Shown here: one piece after another, positions 5,561-32,580 of the stretch
Layout of the letters: every line of letters starts with the position of its first letter
How positions within the stretch are numbered: position 1 is the first letter of the stretch
DNA from: Candidatus Iainarchaeum sp.
Lineage (GTDB): Archaea; Iainarchaeota; Iainarchaeia; Iainarchaeales; JAZDEL01
Direction of reading: 5' to 3'
Length of the DNA: 64,000 nucleotides
Assembly (NCBI GenBank): GCA_043808785.1
Contig: JAZDEL010000009.1
Coordinates: forward strand, 1,680 to 65,679
Translations under genes and position numbers: made by a program
Notes under the pieces: generated by a model
Told to the model about the DNA's origin: nothing
What the model saw: the letters and a program-made list of their open reading frames with translations, nothing else
The model's database searches: none

Positions 5561-5803
5561 GCAGGGAAGCGGGCAGGCAGCCAACGGTTCTCCGAAAGGA
5601 TTCGAACTGAGGAAAGTCCGCCCATCCATTCCAAAATGACGCGCCCGAGAGGGCGTCCCACGGAACAGAAACGATACCCTTCATTGGGCTGAAACGCGCT
5701 GTGGGTGGTGGTGTCAAAACCACCGGGATGCAAGGCTTCACGCCGCTTAGGCGAATGCTGCCGAAATTACAGAAGGCGGCTTATTGCCCGCAGCCCTGCA
5801 CCT
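5561..5803 (+). ncRNA. rnpB: RNase P RNA, compact (~243 nt)
   Basis: P4 5' strand GAGGAAAGUCCGCCC at ~5607. P4 3' strand/CR-V ACAGAAGGCGGCUUAU at ~5768, with a compensatory CCGCC/GGCGG change relative to the bacterial CCGGG/CCCGG. A 15-bp P1 pairs 5561-5575 with 5785-5799. A TATA element lies upstream. Confidence 0.75.
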
Positions 5804-6432: not shown

Positions 6433-9024
6433 ATGCAAGCCCTTACGGACAAGCAGGTAAAGGCGAAGTTCAGGCCGAAATTCGTGAAAGAATACAAGAA
6501 GTTTTACCCCGTGCAGGCTCTGCACTCACTGGGCTTCGAGAGGCGCGAGTGCATGAAATGCCAGCGCGAATTCTGGAGCACGGATGCGGAAAGGCAGGCC
6601 TGCGGCGAGCCCGCGTGCGAGGGCGGATTTGGTTTTATCGGGAAGACGCCCGCGAAAAAGAAACTGAATTACATAGAGGCGTGGGAGGAGTTCGCGCGCG
6701 AGTTCAAAAAAATGGGCTACCTTGCAGTGCCGCGCAAGCCAGTGGTTGCGCGCTGGCGCAACGACGTGTACTGGACGGGCGCCTCGGTGTACGGGTTCCA
6801 GCCGTACGTTGTGAGCGGCGAAATAGAGCCGCCGAGCAACGCGGTTATAATTCCACAACTCAGTTTGCGTTTCAATGATGTGGATAACGTTGGCATAACA
6901 GGCTCGCACTACTCATGCTTCGACATGCTCGGCCAGCTGCGCTTCGAAAAGAAGGGGGATTACGCGCCCGGCGATTATTTGAAAGATTACCTCTCATGGC
7001 TCGAGAAAGGGATGGGAATCCCGCGCAACGCGCTCGTTCTGCACGAGGATTCCTGGGCGGGAGGGGGAACATTCGGCCCGAGCATGGAATTCTTCAGCGC
7101 AGGGCTTGAACTCGGCAACCAGGTTTACATGCAGTATTCCGCTAACGCGGACGGCGGTTACAGGGAACTCGACATAAAAGTTTTGGATATGGGGCAGGGG
7201 CATGAGAGAATACCGTGGTTCACGCACGGCAAGAGTACAAGCTACGAAACCACTTTTCCGGACGTCGTGCACTATCTGCGGAAAGTTTCAGACCTGCGCG
7301 CCGACGAGGAACTGTTGCAAAAATTCCTGCCCTATTCCGCGTACCTGAATGTTGACGAGGTTGAAAATATAGCGCGTACATGGGGCTTTGTTGCGGGGAA
7401 AATAGGCATTTCTGTTGAGGAACTGCGCGCGCGGCTTATGCCCATGCGCGACCTTTACGCGATTGCGGAGCATTCAAGGGCGGTTCTTGCCGCGCTGAAC
7501 GACGGCGCGATGTTCAGCAACACGGGGGGAGGGTATAACATACGCACGCTTGCAAGGCGCATGTTCTCCCTTGCTGAGGAGCGGCGCTGGGATGTGGATT
7601 ATTCAAAACTCCTCGAACTGCACGCGCACTTCCTGCGCAACCTTTACCCGGAACTCGAGGAAAACCTGAAGGATGTGAATGAAATGCTCGCCTATGAACT
7701 GCAGAAGCACGGGCAGACGAGGTTCAAATCCAAGCAGGTTATCGAGGGGCTGATTGCGAGGAAGGAAAAAATCACGCCCGCGAAACTCGCGGAACTGTAC
7801 GATTCGCAGGGAATAACGCCCGAACTCCTGCAGGGCTATGCAAAGGGCACGGAACTCGAGGTAAGCGTGCCCGACAATTTCTTCGCGCTTGTTGCGGAAA
7901 GGCACGCGGAAAAAAAGGAAGGTGCCGGCGAAAGTGATTCGGAGGACAAAAACAAAAAAACAAAAAAACCCGAAATCGCGGGCAAGGTTTTGGAGGGTTT
8001 GCCGGAAACCAAAAGGATGTATTACGAGGATGCCTCGCTCCTCGAATTCGATGCTAATGTCCTTTACGCGCAGGGAAATGTTGTTGTTCTGGACCGCTCG
8101 GCATTTTACCCAACTTCGGGGGGGCAGGAGCACGACACGGGGGAAATAATGGGGGAGCGCGTGATTGATGTTGTTGCGCAGGGGGAGATGGTTTTGCACA
8201 TCCTGCAGAACGGCAAAACCAAAATAAAAACGAAACAGCGGGTTAAGTGCGTGGTTGATGCCGCGCGCAGGAGGCAGTTAACACAGCACCACGACGGCAC
8301 GCATGTGCTGAATTATGCCTGCCGCGAGGTTTTGGGCGCGCACTGCTGGCAGCACGGCTCTTATGTTGGCTTGGATAAGGCGAGGTTCGATGTCACGCAT
8401 TACAGGCCGATAGATGATGCCGAGGCAAAAAAAATCGAGGAGGTGTGCAGCCGCATAATAAAGGAGCGCCTGCCGATAAAGCACGAGTTCCTTGCGCGCA
8501 ATTTAGCGGAGGAAAAATACGGCATGCGCATTTACCAGGGAGGATACGTTCCGGGAAAGGTGCTGCGCATCCTCAGCATTGCGGATTTGGATATCGAGGC
8601 ATGCGGCGGCACGCACGCAAAGAACACCGCCGAAATCGGGCAGTTCCGCATTCTCAACACCGCAAAAATCCAGGACGGGGTTATACGCATAACTTTCGTT
8701 TGCGGGAAAGCCGCGGAGAAGAGCGGGAGCGAGGCCGAAGGATTGCTTGCGGAAACCGCCGCAATTTTGGGCATCGAGCCTGCCGCTGTTCCCTCCGCAT
8801 GCGAAAACCTTTTCGCGGCATGGAAAAGGGCGAGGAAACTTGTGAAGGGCAAAAACACGGGAGCGCTTAGGGCGCTCGCGCTTCCGACGCCCGAAAAAAG
8901 GCATGGTTTGGGCACGGCAGAACTGCTGCAGGCAGCCGCGCTCGCTTTCAGCACGCAGCCCGAGCACGTGCCGAAAACCGCAAAAAGGTTTTTGGGCGAC
9001 CTGCGAAAGTGGAAGGCGGGGTGA
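6433..9024 (+). CDS. alaS: Alanyl-tRNA synthetase, archaeal type
   Basis: 863 aa. The N-terminus MQALTDKQVKAKFRPKFVKEYKKFYP...ECMKCQREFWS is typical of archaeal AlaRS. The C-terminal editing/HxxxH region (HDGTHVLNYACREVLG...CGGTHAKNT) is present. A TATA-like ATTATATAT lies 30 nt upstream. Confidence 0.95.
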   Translation: MQALTDKQVKAKFRPKFVKEYKKFYPVQALHSLGFERRECMKCQREFWSTDAERQACGEPACEGGFGFIGKTPAKKKLNYIEAWEEFAREFKKMGYLAVPRKPVVARWRNDVYWTGASVYGFQPYVVSGEIEPPSNAVIIPQLSLRFNDVDNVGITGSHYSCFDMLGQLRFEKKGDYAPGDYLKDYLSWLEKGMGIPRNALVLHEDSWAGGGTFGPSMEFFSAGLELGNQVYMQYSANADGGYRELDIKVLDMGQGHERIPWFTHGKSTSYETTFPDVVHYLRKVSDLRADEELLQKFLPYSAYLNVDEVENIARTWGFVAGKIGISVEELRARLMPMRDLYAIAEHSRAVLAALNDGAMFSNTGGGYNIRTLARRMFSLAEERRWDVDYSKLLELHAHFLRNLYPELEENLKDVNEMLAYELQKHGQTRFKSKQVIEGLIARKEKITPAKLAELYDSQGITPELLQGYAKGTELEVSVPDNFFALVAERHAEKKEGAGESDSEDKNKKTKKPEIAGKVLEGLPETKRMYYEDASLLEFDANVLYAQGNVVVLDRSAFYPTSGGQEHDTGEIMGERVIDVVAQGEMVLHILQNGKTKIKTKQRVKCVVDAARRRQLTQHHDGTHVLNYACREVLGAHCWQHGSYVGLDKARFDVTHYRPIDDAEAKKIEEVCSRIIKERLPIKHEFLARNLAEEKYGMRIYQGGYVPGKVLRILSIADLDIEACGGTHAKNTAEIGQFRILNTAKIQDGVIRITFVCGKAAEKSGSEAEGLLAETAAILGIEPAAVPSACENLFAAWKRARKLVKGKNTGALRALALPTPEKRHGLGTAELLQAAALAFSTQPEHVPKTAKRFLGDLRKWKAG

Positions 9025-9692
9025 GCGCGTGGGAGTGCGCCGCGGAAACCGCGGAAAACCCGGAAACGTTGCGGGGTGTTGATTTGGGCATCTTCGGCGG
9101 AAAGCCCATACTCACAAAGAAGCGCGAGAAGGCGCTGGACGATTTCCGCGCGAACGCGGTTGCCGCGCTCGGGGAACTGAGGCGCGGGACAAAGGACGCG
9201 AATGTCCGCGAACTTTACGACAGCATGATTTACAACATCGGAAGCACGCCCGTTGTATTCCACCCCCTGCGCAACCTGCGGGAAATGATTTACCGCGTGG
9301 GGAACATGGTTTTCGGCTCCGTTACGAAGGGCGAGAGCGTGGAGAGGATTGCGGTTGTGCAGAAGGGCGGCAGCAGCTATATTGTAAGGCGGCATTACAT
9401 AAACATGCCCGCGGAGCACATGTTTAGCGGAGACCGCCTGACAATCGACGGCATCTTCACGCTTGCGCACGAATATGCGCACTTCGGCAAGCCGCTGATT
9501 GCGGAGTTTGCCGCATCCCTGCGCATAACGCCCGATGTTGCCGAGGAACTGCTTGCCGACACGCTCTCGGCAAAACTCGCGGCAAGGATGGGTTTCCCGA
9601 AAAGCGAGGTTCTTGCGCACTTCGAGGGCAGGGATGTTGTTTATGGCCCATTCCCCTTCAGGAAATACCTCGCGCGCGCAATAGGTTTTTAA
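9021..9692 (+). CDS. Hypothetical HExxH (zinc-metallopeptidase-like) protein, translationally coupled to alaS
   Basis: The ORF overlaps the alaS stop (GTGA). It contains AHEYAHF (HExxH). No other recognisable domain. Confidence 0.45.
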   Translation: MSAWECAAETAENPETLRGVDLGIFGGKPILTKKREKALDDFRANAVAALGELRRGTKDANVRELYDSMIYNIGSTPVVFHPLRNLREMIYRVGNMVFGSVTKGESVERIAVVQKGGSSYIVRRHYINMPAEHMFSGDRLTIDGIFTLAHEYAHFGKPLIAEFAASLRITPDVAEELLADTLSAKLAARMGFPKSEVLAHFEGRDVVYGPFPFRKYLARAIGF

Positions 9693-9721: not shown

Positions 9722-10873
9722 ATGCCGCATTTTAACGTGCAGAAAGCAAGGCTGGTTCTCGGGGACGGTTCCTCTTTTTCGGGCATTTCGTTCGGTGCAA
9801 ATGCTTCTTCCGCGGGCGAGGTTGTATTCAACACGGGCATGTGCGGATATGAGGATTCGCTTTCAGACCCCTCATATTCGGGGCAGATACTGGTTTTCAC
9901 ATACCCCTTGATAGGTAACTACGGGGTAAGGGCGGAGGCACAGGGAAAGTTTGAAATGCGCCTTGCGGGAAAGGGGAACGGCGGCTTCCCGCCATACAAG
10001 CTCGACAGGAAATTCTTCATAAATAATTTCGAGTCCGAGCGCGTGCAGGCTGCGGGGGTTATAGTGGCGTCATATTCTGGCGCCTTTTCGCACCACTCCG
10101 CTGAAAAATCCCTCGGCGCGTGGCTTGAACAGCACGGCGTTCCCGCGATAACCGGCATAGACACGCGCGCGCTGACAAAAAGATTGCGCGAGTGCGGAAC
10201 GATGCCGGGAAAAATTGAAATAGAGGGCGTAAGTGATGTGCGGATATGTGACCCGAATAAAACCAACCTTGTCGCGGGGGTCGGCATAAAGGAGCCAGTG
10301 GTTTACGAGAGCGGGAAGCGCAGCCCCGCGCATGTTGTTGTCGCGGACTGCGGCGTTAAGAACAACATCCTGCGCATGCTGCTTGCCAGAAATCTCAAAG
10401 TTACGCGCGTGCCGTGGAATTACGATTTCAATTCAATCGAATGCGATGCAATCGTGCTCTCGAACGGTCCGGGCGACCCAAAGATGCTTAATGAAACAAT
10501 CTCTCACGTGCGCGCCGCGCTTGCAAAGGAAACCCCGATTTTCGGAATCTGCCTCGGCAACCAGCTGCTTGCGCTTGCAGCGGGCGCGGACACATATAAA
10601 CTCAAATACGGCCACAGGTCGCAGAACCAGCCCGTACTTTTGCGGGGCACAAAGAAATGCTTCATAACCTCCCAGAACCACGGTTACGCGGTTAATGAAA
10701 AAACCCTGCCCGCGGGCTGGGAATCATGGTTCACAAATCTGAATGACGGAACGAACGAGGGCATAAGGCACGCCAAAAAGCCCTTCATGTCGGTTCAGTT
10801 CCATCCCGAAGCAACTCCCGGGCCTGTGGATACGGCGTTCCTTTTCGGCGAATTTTTGGGGGCTTTGAAATGA
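9722..10873 (+). CDS. carA: Carbamoyl-phosphate synthase small (glutaminase) subunit
   Basis: 383 aa. Class-I glutamine amidotransferase catalytic Cys motif GICLGNQLL. Conserved FHPE near the C-terminus. Confidence 0.95.
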   Translation: MPHFNVQKARLVLGDGSSFSGISFGANASSAGEVVFNTGMCGYEDSLSDPSYSGQILVFTYPLIGNYGVRAEAQGKFEMRLAGKGNGGFPPYKLDRKFFINNFESERVQAAGVIVASYSGAFSHHSAEKSLGAWLEQHGVPAITGIDTRALTKRLRECGTMPGKIEIEGVSDVRICDPNKTNLVAGVGIKEPVVYESGKRSPAHVVVADCGVKNNILRMLLARNLKVTRVPWNYDFNSIECDAIVLSNGPGDPKMLNETISHVRAALAKETPIFGICLGNQLLALAAGADTYKLKYGHRSQNQPVLLRGTKKCFITSQNHGYAVNEKTLPAGWESWFTNLNDGTNEGIRHAKKPFMSVQFHPEATPGPVDTAFLFGEFLGALK

Positions 10874-12102
10874 GTTTCGCACAGGAAATGTACCCTCTCC
10901 CGAAACTATTTAAGCGCGGGCTGAACTTAATATTCATGGTGCCGCATTTGGATGCCGTAAAATCCGTTCATTTCTGGGATTTGCCCGAAACAACGAGGTT
11001 CGTTTTGGACCGAAATTTTTGTGCCGAACTTTTTGATAAGGCGGCCGGGGGAAGCCTCCGCTCGCTGGCTTCAAAATTGGGCGTTTCTTACCCGCGCGCC
11101 TGCCATCTGAGGCGGCCTTTGTATTCAATCCCTAAAGGCGTCCTGATGTGCCTGATAATTTTGAGTGCCATTGAAAAGGCGGATGTCGAAAATAAAATTA
11201 TTGAAATAAAAACCCGCTCAGGAGGCGGTTCCAAAGTTAAATTTCCCATTAACGGCAACAGGGCAATAGCCTCGCTTGTAGGGCACGTTTTCGGTGATGG
11301 GTGCATTTATTCGAAAAAACGGCAGTTCGAATACGGCAATACCAAACCCGAACTTCTGGAATCCGTAATGAAATTGGTCGGCGATGTTTTGTGTGCGGAG
11401 CCAATAAGGATTGCCGAAACAAGGCTTGTTTATTCGGCAATTGTGGGGGATATTTTGCTGTTGTTTGGCGCACCGAAAGCGCCTAAACTGAATTCAGATT
11501 CTCCCGTGCCGGAATGGATTATGGCCGGCCCGAATGAATTCAAGGCGGCATTTCTCGGGGCTTTGTTTGACGATGACGGTTCAGTTATGTATTCGGAAAA
11601 ATATGCCGCAAAAGGCATTAACCTGTACCAAACAAGGCACGAAAAAAATCTGGATTGCTTGATGCGCCTGATGAGCCAGGTAAAAACTATGCTGTCTGAT
11701 TTCGGCATACTTGCGGGCAAGCCTTCCGTAAGCAGGAGTTATTCCAAGCCGGATGGCGCCCATATTGTCGCATATCTGAACGTTACCGACATTGAAAGCA
11801 TGCGGAAATTTAATGAATCGATAGGGTTTGCCCACATTGAAAAAAAAGTGAAATTGGAAAAGATTCTCTCCAGAAAAATAATTTACAGCAAAACCCGCGA
11901 AGCCGTGCTGTCGAAAGAAATCCTCGGATTTTTGGCGGTGCGCGGGGCATCAACCGCAAAAGTTTCGGAGGCCCTGTCACTCGATAAATCCAAGGCTTTA
12001 AAGAAACTTCTCAGGCTTGAATCAAGAGGGCTTGTCAGGAGGGCGGGAAGGGCCGCCCCGAACAGGTCTTTTATCTGGCAAACGAGGGAGGTGACATGCT
12101 GA
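10870..12102 (+). CDS. Free-standing double-motif LAGLIDADG homing-endonuclease-like protein with a C-terminal wHTH-like tail
   Basis: Two LAGLIDADG motifs (LVGHVFGDGCIY and LGALFDDDGSV) about 100 aa apart. The ATG overlaps the carA stop (ATGA). The C-terminus ...LRLESRGLVRRAG is wHTH-like. Confidence 0.8.
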   Translation: MSFAQEMYPLPKLFKRGLNLIFMVPHLDAVKSVHFWDLPETTRFVLDRNFCAELFDKAAGGSLRSLASKLGVSYPRACHLRRPLYSIPKGVLMCLIILSAIEKADVENKIIEIKTRSGGGSKVKFPINGNRAIASLVGHVFGDGCIYSKKRQFEYGNTKPELLESVMKLVGDVLCAEPIRIAETRLVYSAIVGDILLLFGAPKAPKLNSDSPVPEWIMAGPNEFKAAFLGALFDDDGSVMYSEKYAAKGINLYQTRHEKNLDCLMRLMSQVKTMLSDFGILAGKPSVSRSYSKPDGAHIVAYLNVTDIESMRKFNESIGFAHIEKKVKLEKILSRKIIYSKTREAVLSKEILGFLAVRGASTAKVSEALSLDKSKALKKLLRLESRGLVRRAGRAAPNRSFIWQTREVTC

Positions 12103-12103
12103 T

Positions 12104-15100
12104 TTGAAAACAAAAAACCACCCAAAGCCGAAGAAGGTTCTCGTGCTGGGTTCGGGCGGGCTGCAGATAGGGCAGGCAGGCGAAAGCAACTTGTGGTTTC
12201 ATTGAAACTATAATTGCCGCCAATTCGACTACTCAGGCAGCCAGGCGATAAAGGCGCTGCGCGAGGAGGGCATAAGCACCGTGCTCATCAACCCCAACAT
12301 CGCCACAGTGCAGACAGGGAAGGGGTTCGCAGATAAGGTTTATTTCCTCCCCCTTACGCCCGAATTTGTCGAAAGGGTGATTGCTCGGGAGAAGCCTGGC
12401 GGCATACTACTCTCCTTCGGCGGGCAAACCGCATTGAACTGCGGCCTCGAACTCGAACGCAGGGGCGTTCTGCGCAGGCACGGGGTAAGGGTATTAGGCA
12501 CGCCTGTGAAGGCAATTGCACTCACGGAGGACAGGGAAAAATTCAACAGCGAACTCGGGAGGATAGGGGTTAAGGTGCCGAGCAGCAGCGCTGTAACCAC
12601 TGTGCCCTCGGCCCTTAGCGCGGCGGAAAAATTGGGCTACCCCGTGATTGTTCGCGCCGCATTCGCATTGGGGGGCAGGGGTTCGGGTTTTGCGAAAAAC
12701 AGGGAGGAATTAAGGGGCATCGCGGGGCGCGCGTTCACGCACTCGAAGCAGATTCTTGTGGAGGAATGCCTGAAGGGCTGGAAGGAAATCGAATACGAGG
12801 TTGTGAGGGATGTGCACGGCAACTGCATAACAGTTTGCAACATGGAGAACTTCGACCCTTTGGGAATACATACGGGGGAGAGCATTGTTGTTGCTCCCTC
12901 GCAGACGCTGAACAACAGCGAATACCACATGCTGCGTGAAATCTCGATACGCACGATAAGGCATTTCGGAATAATCGGGGAATGCAACATACAGTTCGCT
13001 TTGGACCCGAAAAGCGAGGAATACAGGGTTATCGAGGTTAACGCGCGCCTCTCGCGCTCGAGCGCGCTCGCTTCAAAAGCCACTGGTTATCCGCTCGCGT
13101 TCGTTGCCGCAAAACTCGCGCTCGGCTATTCCCTTGCCGAACTTGAAAACAAGGTCACAAGGACAACGAAGGCATGCTTCGAGCCCGCGCTGGATTATAT
13201 TGTCGTGAAAATTCCCCGCTGGGATTTGCAGAAGTTCAGGCGCGTTTCAAGGCGCATAGGCACCGAGATGAAGAGCATGGGGGAAGTGATGGCGATAGGC
13301 AGGACTTTCGAGGAGGCGATGCAAAAAGCCATAAGGATGCTTAACACAGGCATGAACGGCCTTGTGTGCAACAGCGTGCATTTCCTGAAACTGCGCAGGA
13401 GCATTGCCCACCCCACTGATAAGAGGATTTTCGCGGTTATAGAGTCTCTTGAGAAGGGTTACGGCATCGACAGGATACACGCGCTGAGCGGCATTGACAG
13501 ATGGTTCCTCCAGCGCCTTGAGAATGTGGTTGCGCTGAAGAAGGAAATGGTTAAGGGAAACTGGACAGCGCAGGCAATTCCCGCCGAAGTGCTGCTGCGC
13601 TGCAAACAGCAGGGGTTTTCGGATAAGCAGATTGCAATTTTGCTCCGTGGCGGCGGGGATGCGGGGGCGGGCGCAGACGGCGCGAAAATGCGCGGCTCGC
13701 CGGGCGGGGCGCAGGAGGCCGCGGTGCGCGCGAGAAGGCACGCCCTCGGCCTGCATCCTTTCGCAAGGCAGATAGACACGCTTGCAGCGGAATTCCCGGC
13801 GCGCACGAATTACCTTTACCTCACTTACAACGCAACCGAGGATGATGTAAAATTCCCGCGCGGGAAGAAGGCGCTTGTGCTCGGCAGCGGCGCATACAGC
13901 ATAGGCTCCAGCGTCGAGTTCGACTGGTGCTGTGTCGGCGCTGTTAACGCGCTCAAGCGCGCAGGGTTCGGCACGATAATGCTCAACTGCAACCCTGAAA
14001 CCGTCTCAACGGATTATGATGTGTGCGACAGGCTCTATTTCGAGGAAATCAGCCTTGAGGCAGTTCTTGAAATTTACGGAAAGGAAAAGCCGCGGGGGGT
14101 TGTTGTTTCAGCAGGCGGGCAGATACCTAACGGCCTTGTGCCGAAGCTCGCGCCCGCGGGAGTAAAAATTTTCGGAACGCCCGCGGAAAGCATAGACCGC
14201 GCGGAGGATAGGCATAAGTTTTCCGCCCTTCTCGATTCCCTTGGGATTGCCCAGCCGGAATGGCGCCAACTCACAACGGAAAAGCAGGCGCTTGAATTTG
14301 CAGCGCGCGTTAACTATCCGGTGCTTGTAAGGCCGAGTTACGTGCTCAGCGGTTCCGCAATGCGCGTTGCTTTCTCCCCCGCGGAACTCTCCTCATACCT
14401 GCGGGAAGCCACTTCGGTTTCTGCCGAGTACCCTGTTGTGATAAGCAAGTTCATCCTCGGCGCAAGGGAGGTTGAAATTGATGCTGTTGCCTCGAAGGGG
14501 GAAATGGCGGTTTGGGCGATAACCGAGCACGTGGAGAACGCGGGCGTTCACTCAGGGGATGCCACTATGGTTCTCCCTCCCCAGCGCACAAACCTCGAAA
14601 CCGTGCGCAGGATAAAGCATATTGCGAGGCGGCTTGCCTCCTCGCTCCGCATTTCAGGGCCTTTCAATATGCAGTTCCTTGCAAAGGACAACAATGTGCT
14701 CGTGATAGAGATGAACCTGCGCGCCTCGCGCTCGTTCCCGTTTGTTTCGAAGGTTTCCGGCACGGACTTTATCGATGCCGCGGTTTCGGCAATGCTCGGC
14801 GCGAAAGCGAAGCACGCAAATTCCTCCTCACTCGGGCCTGGCAAGGCGCCGCACACCAACTCATCCTCACTCGAGCTCGACCATGTGGGCGTGAAAGTTC
14901 CGCAGTTCTCCTTCTCAAGGCTGCACGGCGCAGACCCTAAACTCGGGGTTGAAATGGCTTCCACGGGAGAAGTTGCGTGCATAGGCCCTGATTTGGAGGA
15001 TGCGTTCCTCAAGGCAATGCTTTCAGCGGGCTACTCGATGCCCAAAAAGAACATGCTTGTCAGCATTTCAGGGGACAGGAACAGGGAAAAACTGCTTGAC

Positions 15101-15451
15101 GCGGTGAAGGCAGCGGCAGTTGCAATGCGCCTTAACATATTCGCGACGGAAAATACCGCGCGCTTCCTGCGCGCGAACGGCGTGAAATGCAGGCGCCTGT
15201 TCAAGGCTCACGAAAACAAGAAGCCGAATGTGCTCGGCTACCTGCACAGCGGCAGGCTTGATTTCGCGATATGCGTCCCCGACCCGCAGGTTGCCGCGGA
15301 AATGGGCGGCGCATACCTCCTCAGGCGCGCTGCCGTCGATTATTCAGTCCCCCTTATAACTGATGCCGAGGTCGCAAGGCAGTTCCTGAAGGCGATTTCC
15401 GCAAAGAAGCCCGAGGAGCTTGACATAAGGCCGTGGCAGGAGTATTTCTGA
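12104..15451 (+). CDS. carB: Carbamoyl-phosphate synthase large subunit, interrupted by a 39-nt insertion (12185-12223) carrying an in-frame TGA
   Basis: TTG 12104 follows GGGAGGTGA. The N-terminal exon KTKNHPKPKKVLVLGSGGLQIGQAGE ends at 12184. After the insertion the frame resumes at 12224 with FDYSGSQAIKALREEG... and continues as 12281..15451 in the ORF track. The two ATP-grasp halves and an MGS-like C-terminus are present. Confidence 0.85.
12185..12223 (+). other. 39-nt insertion in carB with an in-frame UGA; folds as helix / 3-nt bulge / 4-bp helix / hairpin, so a candidate BHB-type mRNA mini-intron
   Basis: Removing AGCAACUUGUGGUUUCAUUGAAACUAUAAUUGCCGCCAA restores the universal GQAxEFDYSG motif. 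Exonic GGCG pairs with CGCC at the insertion's 3' end. An AAA bulge spans the 5' junction. GCAA/UUGC forms a 4-bp helix, followed by a 10-bp stem with a 3-nt loop. Confidence 0.5.
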
Positions 15452-19000: not shown

Positions 19001-19768
19001 CTATTTTTCGCCAGCCGAATTTGCTGCAAGTTCCGTTTTTCCTTGCTCCATCTCGAGCATTTTTTTGAATATCCTGACCACATCCGCATATTTTGCCTTG
19101 CTGGGGAGTGCTGAGGCGACCACATTCGGATTTTCTGCAACAATTCTTCGTATAGTCGCCCTTTTTGTTTTGGATTTTGGCGCTGCATCGAATATTGCGA
19201 AAGCCAGCATGCGCCCGATAATATGCCTTGCAGCATCCTTATTCGGAATGGGTGCGACACCCTTCTCTTTTGAGAATTTCTCAATAACTTCGAGAACTGG
19301 CTTGTCGTTTTGAATATTTAAATACTCGTAGTATCTGTTGTGAAGTCTTGCTTCCTTCAATAATAGCGCCTCTATAGCATAGCTGTCTGCGACTGTCGCG
19401 GAAGCAATATCGTCAATATTGCTGAGGCGAAGATGTCGTTTGTAATCACGCGGCCCATATTGCATTTTTAGGATTTCCCCCCTTTTTTTTGAATATGCGG
19501 CATGCCCCGTCTCATGTGCAATCACATATTCGGGCATATTTTTCTTTAACAAGTAAATGGTTCGTTTTGTCTTCTTGTTGGGGTTGCGACTATTTATTAT
19601 CTCCATGTTTCCAATAGAATTTGACGGCAAATCCTTTATAACTTTTCCAAGGCTTTCCTTGGTTGTGACGTGCACTTTCACGCCAAGCGGCCCTGTGCCG
19701 AGTTCATTCTGGATTTGCTTTTTCATTCTCTTGTAATAGCGTCTCAGCGGTTTTGGGAAATGAGCCAT
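19001..19768 (-). CDS. Hypothetical HExxH metallopeptidase-like protein
   Basis: 255 aa. Motif VIAHETGHAAY. No other recognisable domain. Part of the low-GC islet between leuS and argS. Confidence 0.5.
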   Translation of the reverse strand: MAHFPKPLRRYYKRMKKQIQNELGTGPLGVKVHVTTKESLGKVIKDLPSNSIGNMEIINSRNPNKKTKRTIYLLKKNMPEYVIAHETGHAAYSKKRGEILKMQYGPRDYKRHLRLSNIDDIASATVADSYAIEALLLKEARLHNRYYEYLNIQNDKPVLEVIEKFSKEKGVAPIPNKDAARHIIGRMLAFAIFDAAPKSKTKRATIRRIVAENPNVVASALPSKAKYADVVRIFKKMLEMEQGKTELAANSAGEK

Positions 19769-24144: not shown

Positions 24145-25044
24145 TTACACCTTAACCCCCAACAGCTTCAGCATCACAGCCTTCTGCACGTGCATCCTGT
24201 TCTCGGCCTCATCGAAGACAATGCTTGCCTTGCTGTCAAGCACCTCATCAGCAACCTCGCATCCGCGGTGCGCGGGCAGGCAGTGCATGAACAATGCATC
24301 CTTCTTCGCGTGTGCCATCAAATTTGCATCAACCATGTAACCCTTAAAATCCCGCAGGCGCTTCTCCTTCTCCCCCTCCTGCCCCATGCTGACCCAGGTG
24401 TCGGTGTAAACAACATCCGCGCCCTTAACCGCGTCTTCGGGTTTGTTGTAGAGCTGCAGCGCACCGAATTTCTTTCCCACATCAACCGCGCTTTTGTGGG
24501 GTTCGTAACCCTTCGGGGTTGCAACAGCAACCTTCATACCCATTTTCGAGCCGCCGATTATGAGCGAGTTGCAAACATTGTTCCCGTCCCCCACAAATGC
24601 CAGTTTCAAACCCTCCAGTTTTCCTTTTTTTTCCTTTATTGTCATCAAATCCGCCAAAATTTGGCACGGGTGATAAAGGTCGCAAAGCGCATTTATGACG
24701 GGAACCCTGCTGGCTTCCGCCATTGCCTTGATATCCGCATGCTTATACACGCGCGCCATGATAATATCGCAGTACCTGTCCAGGCACCTTATTTCATCCT
24801 GAATTGCGCCCAATGTGAAGTTGCTCGCCCTCCAGTCCAGAAAAATCGCGTGCCCGCCCAATTGCGTCATTCCCGCCTCGAAACTAACCCTTGTACGTGT
24901 GCTGGTTTTCTGGAACAGCATGCACAGGCTCTTGTTTTTGAGCGCGTCCGCATAATCCCCCTGCGAACCCTTTACTTTTATTGCGTTGTCTATAACCTCG
25001 CCTATAAGTTCGGGTTTCCAGTCCAAAAGAGTTACAAGATGCAT
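24145..25044 (-). CDS. argF: Ornithine carbamoyltransferase
   Basis: STRTRVSFE carbamoyl-phosphate-binding motif and the HCLPAHRG ornithine-binding motif. ATG 25044 is preceded by GGAGGT. Same pathway as carAB. Confidence 0.9.
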   Translation of the reverse strand: MHLVTLLDWKPELIGEVIDNAIKVKGSQGDYADALKNKSLCMLFQKTSTRTRVSFEAGMTQLGGHAIFLDWRASNFTLGAIQDEIRCLDRYCDIIMARVYKHADIKAMAEASRVPVINALCDLYHPCQILADLMTIKEKKGKLEGLKLAFVGDGNNVCNSLIIGGSKMGMKVAVATPKGYEPHKSAVDVGKKFGALQLYNKPEDAVKGADVVYTDTWVSMGQEGEKEKRLRDFKGYMVDANLMAHAKKDALFMHCLPAHRGCEVADEVLDSKASIVFDEAENRMHVQKAVMLKLLGVKV

Positions 25045-25130
25045 CCTCAAACCTCCTCGAGCCCACACTAAACAGCAACCAAAATTATTTAATAATGGTT
25101 CATGCCGGTTTTGGTTCGGCAATAAAAAGC

Positions 25131-25892
25131 CTAACCCCTAGGCCGGGGCTTTGGCTGGTTATTCCGCCTTTCTCTTGTTGCGGGCCTTTTTCCCGCCTTC
25201 TTGCGCCGCCATGCCCTGAAACTTTTCACAATAAGGTCAAAATCAGCAGGGCGCAAGGAGTGCTTTTCGGCAAATTTTATTCTGCTCTTTATTCCGCGCG
25301 CCTTTAGCGCTTCTTTCAAATTATCCGCGGCAGCATCTATGCAGCCCGGCTCGTATTCCCTATTGCGAGCATTAAAATTTCCCAGATACTCGCCCATGCC
25401 CTCAATTTCAACCCCCTTTTCATCAAATTCAAACTTTGAAATAAGCCTTCCCAATTCCGACCGGTAATGCTGCTTTTCCCTTACGGTTACTTCATAGTCC
25501 CCGACAACAGCATTTCCGCCCGAATGGCGGAAGTCCCCGTAAACCTTGGGCAGTTCCAGAAATCTGCTGCCAAGCGTTTTCCCTGCAAATTCCCTGAACC
25601 TGCCATACGTATCCTTCAGGCCGCTCGGAATGGAAGAAAGAGGCTCAACCCCGACCATAACCGCCATTGCATCCGGGTTATTTTTTATTGCCGCTATCTC
25701 TTTTCCCCAGCCGCCGAGCATATTTCTTACAAATGAGCGAGTTACCTGCGGGAATTGCGAAAGCCTTTGTGGCGGTTCGTGCCAAGGAAGCCCCTGATAT
25801 ATCATGAGAAACAGGCTGTGAAACGGGTGCACTATCAAAAGCACCCTGTTTATTTTGCCCGGCTTTACATGTTCATTCATTTTGTTAGCCAT
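25131..25892 (-). CDS. Hypothetical protein with a basic C-terminal tail
   Basis: 253-aa ORF with no recognisable motifs. Ends ...RRKKAGKRPATRERRNNQPKPRPRG. Confidence 0.4.
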   Translation of the reverse strand: MANKMNEHVKPGKINRVLLIVHPFHSLFLMIYQGLPWHEPPQRLSQFPQVTRSFVRNMLGGWGKEIAAIKNNPDAMAVMVGVEPLSSIPSGLKDTYGRFREFAGKTLGSRFLELPKVYGDFRHSGGNAVVGDYEVTVREKQHYRSELGRLISKFEFDEKGVEIEGMGEYLGNFNARNREYEPGCIDAAADNLKEALKARGIKSRIKFAEKHSLRPADFDLIVKSFRAWRRKKAGKRPATRERRNNQPKPRPRG

Positions 25893-32488: not shown

Positions 32489-32577
32489 GGACCCGTAGCC
32501 TAGCCTGGACAGGGCATCTGGCTTCTACCTCCCCGGAAGTTACCAGAAGGTCGAGGGTTCAAATCCCTCCGGGTCCA
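32489..32577 (+). tRNA. tRNA-Arg(TCT) with a 14-nt intron after position 37
   Basis: Acceptor GGACCCG/CGGGUCC. D arm GCCU..GGGC. Anticodon stem UCUGG / CCAGA interrupted by CCUCCCCGGAAGUU. T arm GAGGG-UUCAAAU-CCCUC. Discriminator A. No encoded CCA. Confidence 0.75.
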
Positions 32578-32580
32578 CTA

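Follow-up and report, generated by a model that had tools for sequence, protein, structure and literature searches.

A candidate endonuclease-type mini-intron in the carB gene of Candidatus Iainarchaeum and at the same codon boundary in Nitrososphaerota and other DPANN archaea

We analyzed a 64-kb stretch of DNA from Candidatus Iainarchaeum sp., in the following called the window, in which the carbamoyl-phosphate synthase gene carB is interrupted close to its 5' end by 39 nucleotides (nt) at positions 12185–12223. This insert is very likely an endonuclease-type mini-intron of the carB pre-mRNA. Judged by sequence comparison, it belongs to a family of inserts at exactly this carB codon boundary in Nitrososphaerota and several DPANN lineages. 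Its anatomy, conservation, covariation and frame logic were observed, and from them we infer excision and the enzymes involved. All coordinates are window positions, and features lie on the plus strand unless marked otherwise.

Anatomy of the carB insert

Read from a TTG start at 12104, the carB frame gives LKTKNHPKPKKVLVLGSGGLQIGQAGE, with ...VLVLGSGGLQIGQAGE as the stretch ahead of the insert, then SNLWFH*NYNCRQ, and continues with FDYSGSQAIKALREEG. The insert, AGCAACTTGTGGTTTCATTGAAACTATAATTGCCGCCAA, occurs only once in the window, contains an in-frame TGA at 12203–12205 and shares its frame with the long open reading frame (ORF) 12281–15451. Its GC content is 38% compared with 57% for carB. 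Exon 1 (12104–12184) comprises 27 codons from the TTG start to GQAGE, exon 2 (12224–15451) 1075 intact codons and the stop, with every CarB Pfam domain found. Owing to an AA repeat, the insert may equally be placed at 12183–12221 or 12184–12222. The original prediction of a 39-nt insert with an in-frame UGA in an otherwise intact carB, its junction ambiguous by up to 2 nt, was thus correct in these points.

Removal of the insert also restores CarB, as had been claimed. The frame then reads ...GQAGE|FDYSG... and encodes 1102 amino acids (aa) with all CarB Pfam domains, and no gap is needed to align the spliced N-terminus across the junction with those of human CPS1 and E. coli CarB, both of solved structure. 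The joined DNA would have the context GGCGAA|TTCGAC, the peptide expected across such a junction is ...IGEAGEFDYSGSQ..., and an intron-less carB site would read ...ATAGGGCAGGCAGGCGAATTCGACTACTCAGGC....

The insert and its 5' flank fold as described earlier, i.e., GGCG pairs with CGCC, and an AAA bulge, a GCAA/UUGC helix, a 1-nt C bulge and a 10-bp stem with a 3-nt loop follow. We assign the exonic GGCG (12179–12182) and the intronic CGCC (12218–12221) to the central helix H, which lies between the putative cut sites. The intron-side helix h' (12186–12217) consists of GCAA (12186–12189) paired with UUGC (12214–12217), the C bulge at 12190 and the 10-bp stem (12191–12200/12204–12213) with its loop AUU (12201–12203). 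At the 5' side, the three-nucleotide bulge AA|A (12183–12185) would be cut after 12184, in the same 2|1 manner as a tRNA-Arg intron of the window (see below), and at the 3' side AA|U (12222–12224) would be cut after 12223. With a 2|1 cut in both 3-nt bulges, precisely the 39 nt would be lost and GAA would be followed in frame by UUC.

The same boundary is split in other archaea

We scanned one genome per species with the pattern GCAGGCGAR-N(10-40)-AATTYGAYTAYTCNGG, which demands a gap of 12–42 nt at the carB boundary and retrieved at least 119 stretches. Including the window, this pattern set comprised 122 sites among the matches listed. A second set was defined by the protein motif at the junction only and contained at least 134 carB junctions, 97 of them distinct, all split at the identical codon boundary. 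The comparison with carB of related genomes that the original prediction had suggested therefore supports a shared site. Carriers in the pattern set were nearly all Nitrososphaerota, plus Woesearchaeota, Iainarchaeum and Aenigmatarchaeota (among the matches listed). They include complete or cultured genomes, i.e., Nitrosotenuis chungbukensis MY2 (complete; insert at about 1,541,427–1,541,470 of NZ_CP130341.1), Nitrosotalea devanaterra (about 751,772–751,814 of LN890280.1), N. bavarica and Nitrosocosmicus agrestis. Twelve further DPANN loci were reached via a LAGLIDADG gene that precedes carB in the window. Such LAGLIDADG-linked metagenome loci have inserts ending in UA, AU or AC and other exon codons, outside the reach of the scan pattern.

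Inserts in the pattern set were 16–39 nt long, with modes at 20 and 21 (among the matches listed), and lengths modulo three of 0, 1 and 2 were found in 35, 22 and 40 of the 97 distinct junctions, respectively, so multiples of three were not favored. The first two DPANN contigs reached through the LAGLIDADG ORF have inserts of 35 nt (locus L001) and 17 nt (locus L002) at the same codon boundary; these are not multiples of three, so only their removal restores the frame. For the whole pattern set, among the matches listed, 69 inserts were not multiples of three, and all 53 that were contained an in-frame stop. After removal, the ORF extended over at least 1042 codons in 64 of the 75 listed loci whose gene ends within the locus. 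The nearest relative of the window carB, locus L064 from an independent Iainarchaeum metagenome-assembled genome (MAG), has an insert of likewise 39 nt at the same site, identical in 33 of 39 positions. Its CarB is 78–81% identical, and carA abuts carB there.

These findings bear on two other explanations of the insert. An assembly or sequencing artefact might be suspected in a window that stems from a MAG, where exact look-ups of the truncated CarB and of the neighboring ORF led to no contig. Given the independent Iainarchaeum MAG with 33 of 39 positions identical at the same place, and more than 100 other assemblies with inserts at this boundary, among them closed genomes of cultures, we attach practically no weight to this explanation. 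Alternatively, a recent small insertion might have turned carB into a pseudogene, as the in-frame stop lies within an essential motif, DPANN often lose biosynthetic genes, and the relative L002 carries extra damage, i.e., an in-frame TAG and a deletion or frameshift. Yet the remaining 1075 codons are intact with all domains, the insert covaries structurally (see below), at least 134 junctions share the site, including those of free-living autotrophic ammonia oxidizers that need CarB, and 64 of 75 listed loci are full length after removal. A pseudogene is hence highly improbable. The original prediction had found both explanations less attractive, and independent assemblies and conservation now exclude them.

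Helix geometry is conserved and covaries

At the frame-restoring register, at least three of the four H pairs could form in 96 of the 97 distinct junctions, whereas shuffled inserts allowed this in 18.9 junctions on average and in no more than 29. The 5' bulge was AAA in 81 and AGA in 13 of the 97 junctions, and the 3' site AAU in 89. Helix H tracks the exon codon choice: GGCG pairs with CGC(C,U,A) or CGUC, GCCG with CGGC (L132, L134) and GCUG with CAGU (L136). In L135, where both splice sites are located 1 nt further on, H is CUGA/UCAG.

The intron-side helix behaves similarly. Across 82 distinct inserts, its first four pairs were formed in 94–99%, by Watson-Crick pairs of several types. In a loop-trimmed alignment of 74 distinct junctions, all five h' pairs counted showed compensatory changes, and seven of nine pairs varied on both sides. 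Paired cells amounted to 94.6% compared with 77.9% in shuffles, none of 500 of which reached the observed value, and slid registers gave 21–58%. By these sequence counts, both H and h' covary.

The exon bases next to the insert (AUCGGAGAA upstream, UACUCCGG downstream) appeared nearly invariant by eye, at synonymous sites and even in AT-rich thaumarchaeal genomes (e.g., L016, L020). These flanks could form a distal CGGAG/CUCCG helix enclosing the splice sites; their invariance might stem from constraints on structure or on an endonuclease target, or else from conversion tracts.

The splicing system

A tRNA-Arg(UCU) gene at 32489–32578 of the window contains a canonical 14-nt bulge-helix-bulge (BHB) intron (32528–32541, position 37/38), with the helix CUUC/GAAG, bulges UA|C and UU|A and the same 2|1 cuts as in carB. 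We hence conclude that the host uses a BHB splicing system. ARAGORN labels this gene wrongly as tRNA-??? with a 4-base anticodon.

Our proposed mechanism would start with pairing of the exonic GGCG with CGCC near the intron 3' end, and the resulting 4-bp helix would be the ruler for the tRNA-splicing endonuclease (EndA). The 5' cut would fall into AA|A, closed on the intron side by the hairpin of 4 bp and 10 bp. The 3' cut would fall into AA|U, where no exon-side helix closes the site, so that the substrate would require a broad-specificity EndA. An RtcB-type ligase would join GAA to UUC and thus lead to ...GQAGEFDYSG... and a full-length CarB of 1102 aa. Published work assigns cleavage of relaxed substrates exclusively to broad-specificity EndA, either (αβ)2 enzymes with the Crenarchaea-specific loop or ε2 enzymes; Thaumarchaeota EndA is (αβ)2, and DPANN EndA is diverse, many of these enzymes having an additional loop associated with disrupted tRNA genes (PMC5829648, PMC12397907).

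Skipping of the insert on the ribosome would yield the same protein as skipping on the RNA level. The insert might be kept in the mRNA and passed by bypassing, as in phage T4 gene 60, or by readthrough and frameshift, and such an event would be compatible with the stable hairpin of the insert and with the stop or frame change soon after the last exon codon. Hopping, however, needs matching take-off and landing codons. These are GAA and CAA in the window and GAA/UAA, GAA/AAA or GAG/UAA elsewhere, i.e., they do not match in the window, and non-matching pairs occur in other loci too. Moreover, the gap varies between 16 and 39 nt, the conserved and covarying 4-bp helix between exon and insert 3' end together with the 3-nt bulges at the boundaries is an endonuclease ruler, and a tRNA intron of the window has the same geometry. 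Bypassing is therefore very unlikely.

Some observations count against a spliced intron. The exon-side helix h of the canonical hBHBh' motif is absent, with a single A-U pair possible beside AA|U, and this holds across the whole carB insert family. The motif is hence the relaxed HBh' or bulge-helix-loop (BHL) form rather than a canonical BHB, in agreement with the relaxed bulge-helix substrate originally predicted. The fold energy of the single sequence is unexceptional (z = −1.57; 17 of 200 shuffles were as stable), and the significance of the fold comes from comparison with other genomes, not from this energy. The scan pattern fixed GCAGGCGAR and AA...TTYGAYTAYTCNGG, by which H was preset to GGCG and one sequence type was enriched in that subset. 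Further breaks in carB occur in 11 of the 75 loci mentioned above (among the matches listed), some of which, e.g., L002, may be true pseudogenes. Finally, the 64 kb of the window yielded neither an EndA nor an RtcB gene, in a weak test with an approximate M. jannaschii EndA query. The search for EndA advised in the original prediction thus covered the window only and gave nothing significant, with ORF 9009–9692, which lacks a Pfam match, as the best weak hit. The likewise advised search for other BHB-like inserts failed: a scan of the window for frame-joining HBh' arrangements gave 557 hits on one strand and was too permissive. Weighed against these points are the shared boundary, the H register in 96 of 97 junctions, the covariation and the BHB intron in tRNA-Arg, which together support the mini-intron removed by the splicing endonuclease that had been predicted.

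Additional irregularities in split carB genes

Several carB loci show further peculiarities. The carB 5' region of L112 (Aenigmatarchaeota JASEGC010000006.1) apparently contains three mini-introns: one of 16 nt at the main site, one of about 18 nt inside GSGA|(I)KIGE, and one of 23 nt at NPNIAT|IQ. The third has perfect HBh' geometry, UGCG AC|A UAGUUUUUAAAAACUA CGCA AA|A, and follows the 2|1 rule. A second insertion of about 31 nt is found in exon 1 of L124 (1379–1409) and L126, both DPANN loci with the LAGLIDADG gene, between GSGA(L) and KIGEAGE and about 20 nt upstream of the main intron; its boundaries are ambiguous, and a clean BHB-type geometry could not be fitted to it.

From the preceding stop codon up to the exon 1 boundary, at least 31 thaumarchaeal loci (e.g., L003, L016, L020, L057) have no in-frame ATG, GTG or TTG. 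An in-frame peptide ...PKDESLKKILVLGSG... is conserved there, overlapped by a conserved out-of-frame ATG-NNN-NNN-stop mini-ORF. In these loci carB may start at a non-canonical codon (CTG, ATA or ATC) or at something else.

Beside its 17-nt intron, carB of L002/L032 (Woesearchaeota JACPMT010000040.1) has an in-frame TAG and a deletion or frameshift in the linker before the second half (breaks at 7384 and about 8664–8680), where the related L122 has GAG in place of TAG. Either a genuine pseudogene or poor assembly quality is the probable cause. In Nitrosotenuis chungbukensis MY2 (L018, NZ_CP130341.1) the frame breaks about 364 codons into exon 2 (...AIGRTF*), in a region conserved otherwise, and the correct residues resume in another frame; an additional intron, a frameshift or an error in the sequence could be the reason. 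Several more thaumarchaeal loci (L006, L042, L047, L048, L050 and L094) likewise have stops early in exon 2.

A LAGLIDADG gene upstream of carB

The carB gene is preceded by alaS, carA and a LAGLIDADG gene and followed by leuS and, farther on, argS on the opposite strand. The small chain gene carA (9722–10873) was assigned by translation and the Pfam domains CPSase_sm_chain and GATase. Its stop overlaps (ATGA) the start of a free-standing homing-endonuclease-like gene of 410 aa (10870–12102; Pfam LAGLIDADG_3), which ends 1 nt ahead of the carB start. The Shine-Dalgarno-like GGAGGTGA of carB (12087–12094) was recognized by reading the sequence; it falls inside the LAGLIDADG ORF, at its 3' end, 9 nt before TTG 12104. 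In L064, GGAGGTGA precedes carB too, within the 3' end of carA. We considered whether the similar C-termini of L064 CarA (KEVSN*) and the window LAGLIDADG protein (REVTC*) mark an endonuclease insertion and rejected this, as the shared residues encode the GGAGGTGA ribosome-binding site.

An archaeal RNase P RNA at 5565–5795 (Rfam RF00373, 107.7 bits) and a 100% match of the LAGLIDADG ORF to an NCBI LAGLIDADG family homing endonuclease from a Candidatus Diapherotrites archaeon MAG show that the window is archaeal. An arginine operon with carA and argF had been described for it. The gene carA does precede carB, with the LAGLIDADG gene between them, but argF is not in the same operon: the aspartate/ornithine carbamoyltransferase gene at 24145–25122, probably the argF meant, lies about 9 kb downstream of carB on the minus strand. 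ORFs 9009–9692, directly upstream of carA, 19001–19768 and 25131–25892 (both on the minus strand) encode 227–255 aa without a Pfam match at E ≤ 0.01.

The LAGLIDADG protein has the two motifs LVGHVFGDG and LGALFDDDG, with D143 and D235 invariant in 22 homologues, as well as an N-terminal helix-turn-helix (HTH)-like region and a C-terminal MarR-like winged helix. Its AlphaFold2 model (mean predicted local distance difference test score, pLDDT, 89) indicates the double-motif LAGLIDADG fold (αββαββα), and Foldseek matched it to TliVMA, PI-SceI and I-Tsp061I (2dch among the best), but also to WhiA and the bI3 maturase. We discarded the possibility that the ORF is an intein or part of a larger intron, since it lacks intein blocks and a flanking extein, and since exon 1 of carB separates it from the intron. 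Its GC content at third codon positions is 0.53 compared with 0.63–0.72 in neighboring genes.

Relatives with at least 35% identity are located directly upstream of a split carB in all 14 loci for which DNA was available. The distance from the LAGLIDADG gene to the intron is 81 nt in the window and about 80–100 nt across loci. L064 keeps the intron without the gene, i.e., presence is polymorphic between close relatives, and none of about 110 thaumarchaeal loci, which keep the intron, has it (among the matches listed). Endonuclease and CarB identities correlate across lineages (Spearman 0.73), and the endonuclease is kept at 31–89% identity. Distant relatives (L137–L149, metagenome contigs, 26–36% identity) are free-standing in varied archaeal contexts without carB nearby, with, e.g., RNase P protein, proteasome or CysRS genes as neighbors; a link of L137–L149 to other split genes was not evident.

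Origin and possible mobility of the intron

At least three clades can be distinguished among the split carB genes. CarB proteins of the window's DPANN clade are 60–83% identical to each other and 60–69% identical to intron-less bacterial CarB, and the best homologue with an intact N-terminus (P0002) is bacterial. The thaumarchaeal clade is 50–56% identical to the others, and L136 about 45% to all others. As CarB of the window's clade is as close to bacterial CarB as to other members of the clade and only about 50% identical to the thaumarchaeal proteins, the sequences suggest that the DPANN clade acquired a bacterial-type carB and that the archaeal intron was gained later. The intron site is common to carB clades that are only 44–56% identical. 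That genes so divergent share one position suggests either that the intron is very old or that it spread laterally into a strongly conserved DNA site.

With regard to spread, the LAGLIDADG gene and the BHB-type mini-intron may form a two-part mobile element that moves by collaborative homing, a possibility we put forward tentatively. The LAGLIDADG gene would be, or have been, the mobility partner of the intron, a reading weaker than that of the intron itself. The enzyme would target intron-less carB and cleave it within or close to the conserved sequence that encodes GQAGE|FDYSG, and repair from the donor by gene conversion would copy endonuclease gene, exon 1 and intron together. As the intron splits the target, the host's own carB would be protected.

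Four findings argue against homing. No intron-less, endonuclease-less archaeal carB allele was present among the loci recovered, the co-divergence of endonuclease and CarB (Spearman 0.73) fits long-term co-inheritance or domestication equally well, the LAGLIDADG plus HTH architecture resembles the domesticated regulator WhiA, and about 110 thaumarchaeal loci keep the intron without such a gene (among the matches listed). The intron may be real and the LAGLIDADG protein not its mobility partner but a WhiA-like regulator of carB, an RNA maturase or a selfish endonuclease with an unrelated target, to which we assign a somewhat less than even chance; domestication as regulator or maturase is a serious rival. 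This is consistent with HTH domains at both ends and with the fold-search hits to WhiA and the bI3 maturase. Moreover, co-divergence with CarB and retention at 31–89% identity would suit a gene maintained for its function better than a transient parasite, and Thaumarchaeota and L064 manage with the intron but without the gene. On the other hand, the two catalytic aspartates never vary among 22 homologues, in contrast to WhiA, presence or absence differs between close relatives, the base composition is deviant, and distant relatives occur in unrelated contexts, like mobile genes. In addition, the gene is always found about 80–100 nt from an endonuclease-less intron in DNA that ranks among the most conserved known, which is the layout of collaborative or trans homing (PMC2790892).

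Implications

We found no report of a carB intron in the searchable literature, papers in subscription journals being outside our reach. According to a 2020 paper, cbf5 is the sole additional BHB intron reported in archaeal mRNA (PMC7714728), and a 2025 paper still cites the cbf5 work only. On the sequence evidence, carB would be a second, widely distributed host gene for endonuclease-type mRNA introns. If so, mRNA splicing by the tRNA endonuclease would not be confined to one gene and would involve a core metabolic gene of ammonia-oxidizing archaea, which are abundant worldwide, and of several DPANN lineages; several carriers are cultured, so that the intron is directly testable. Moreover, hundreds of genomes probably list carB as a pseudogene or with its N-terminus cut short, which would affect metabolic reconstructions, especially calls of arginine or pyrimidine auxotrophy in DPANN. 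The 97 natural variants could also define a recognition rule for relaxed substrates, i.e., a 4-bp helix, one closed bulge and 2|1 cuts.

The LAGLIDADG neighbor is a possible handle on how such introns move. If homing applies, this would be the first collaborative homing outside self-splicing introns and a DNA-level entry route of endonuclease-type introns into protein-coding genes. It would also explain the single intron site in carB genes of Nitrososphaerota and DPANN that are only 44–56% identical.

Comparison with known systems

The closest parallel for the substrate is found in non-canonical tRNA introns of the HBh'/BHL form (PMC5829648, PMC12397907). These also have a 4-bp central helix with symmetric cuts, one 3-nt bulge closed by an intron-side helix and the other site in an unclosed loop. 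In contrast to them, the carB substrate is an mRNA without a tRNA body.

For the arrangement with the LAGLIDADG gene, the systems to compare are collaborative or trans homing of cyanophage F-CphI/psbA and T4 mobE/nrdB (PMC2790892, PMC6083498). As in carB, an endonuclease-less intron resides in a highly conserved gene, and a free-standing homing-endonuclease gene lies within recombination distance, here about 80 nt. The known cases are self-splicing group I introns of phages with HNH or EndoVII-type enzymes, whereas the carB case would combine a protein-spliced archaeal intron with a LAGLIDADG protein; the likeness is one of arrangement only. The archaeal rRNA-intron enzymes I-DmoI and I-Tsp061I resemble the protein of ORF 10870–12102 in their monomeric double-motif LAGLIDADG fold and their association with BHB-type introns. 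The window gene differs in its position outside the intron, upstream of exon 1, in the extra HTH and winged-helix domains of its product and in its protein-coding host gene.

The cbf5 pre-mRNA intron of Crenarchaeota (Watanabe 2002; Yoshinari 2006; Yokobori 2009, PMC2738675) is likewise a short intron within an ORF, with a bulge-helix-bulge-type motif at its flanks and a patchy phylogeny, which gene callers see as a frameshift or truncation. It is removed by the tRNA-splicing endonuclease and a ligase; this splicing was shown experimentally, whereas the carB intron is known here from sequence. No cbf5 intron is listed for Cenarchaeum or Nitrosopumilus (Yokobori 2009, PMC2738675). Compared with cbf5, the carB intron would reside in a different host gene, at a glycine-rich ATP-site motif, and in other lineages, i.e., Nitrososphaerota and DPANN. 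All carB members seen have the relaxed HBh'/BHL form, and some DPANN carB genes appear to contain two or three such introns.

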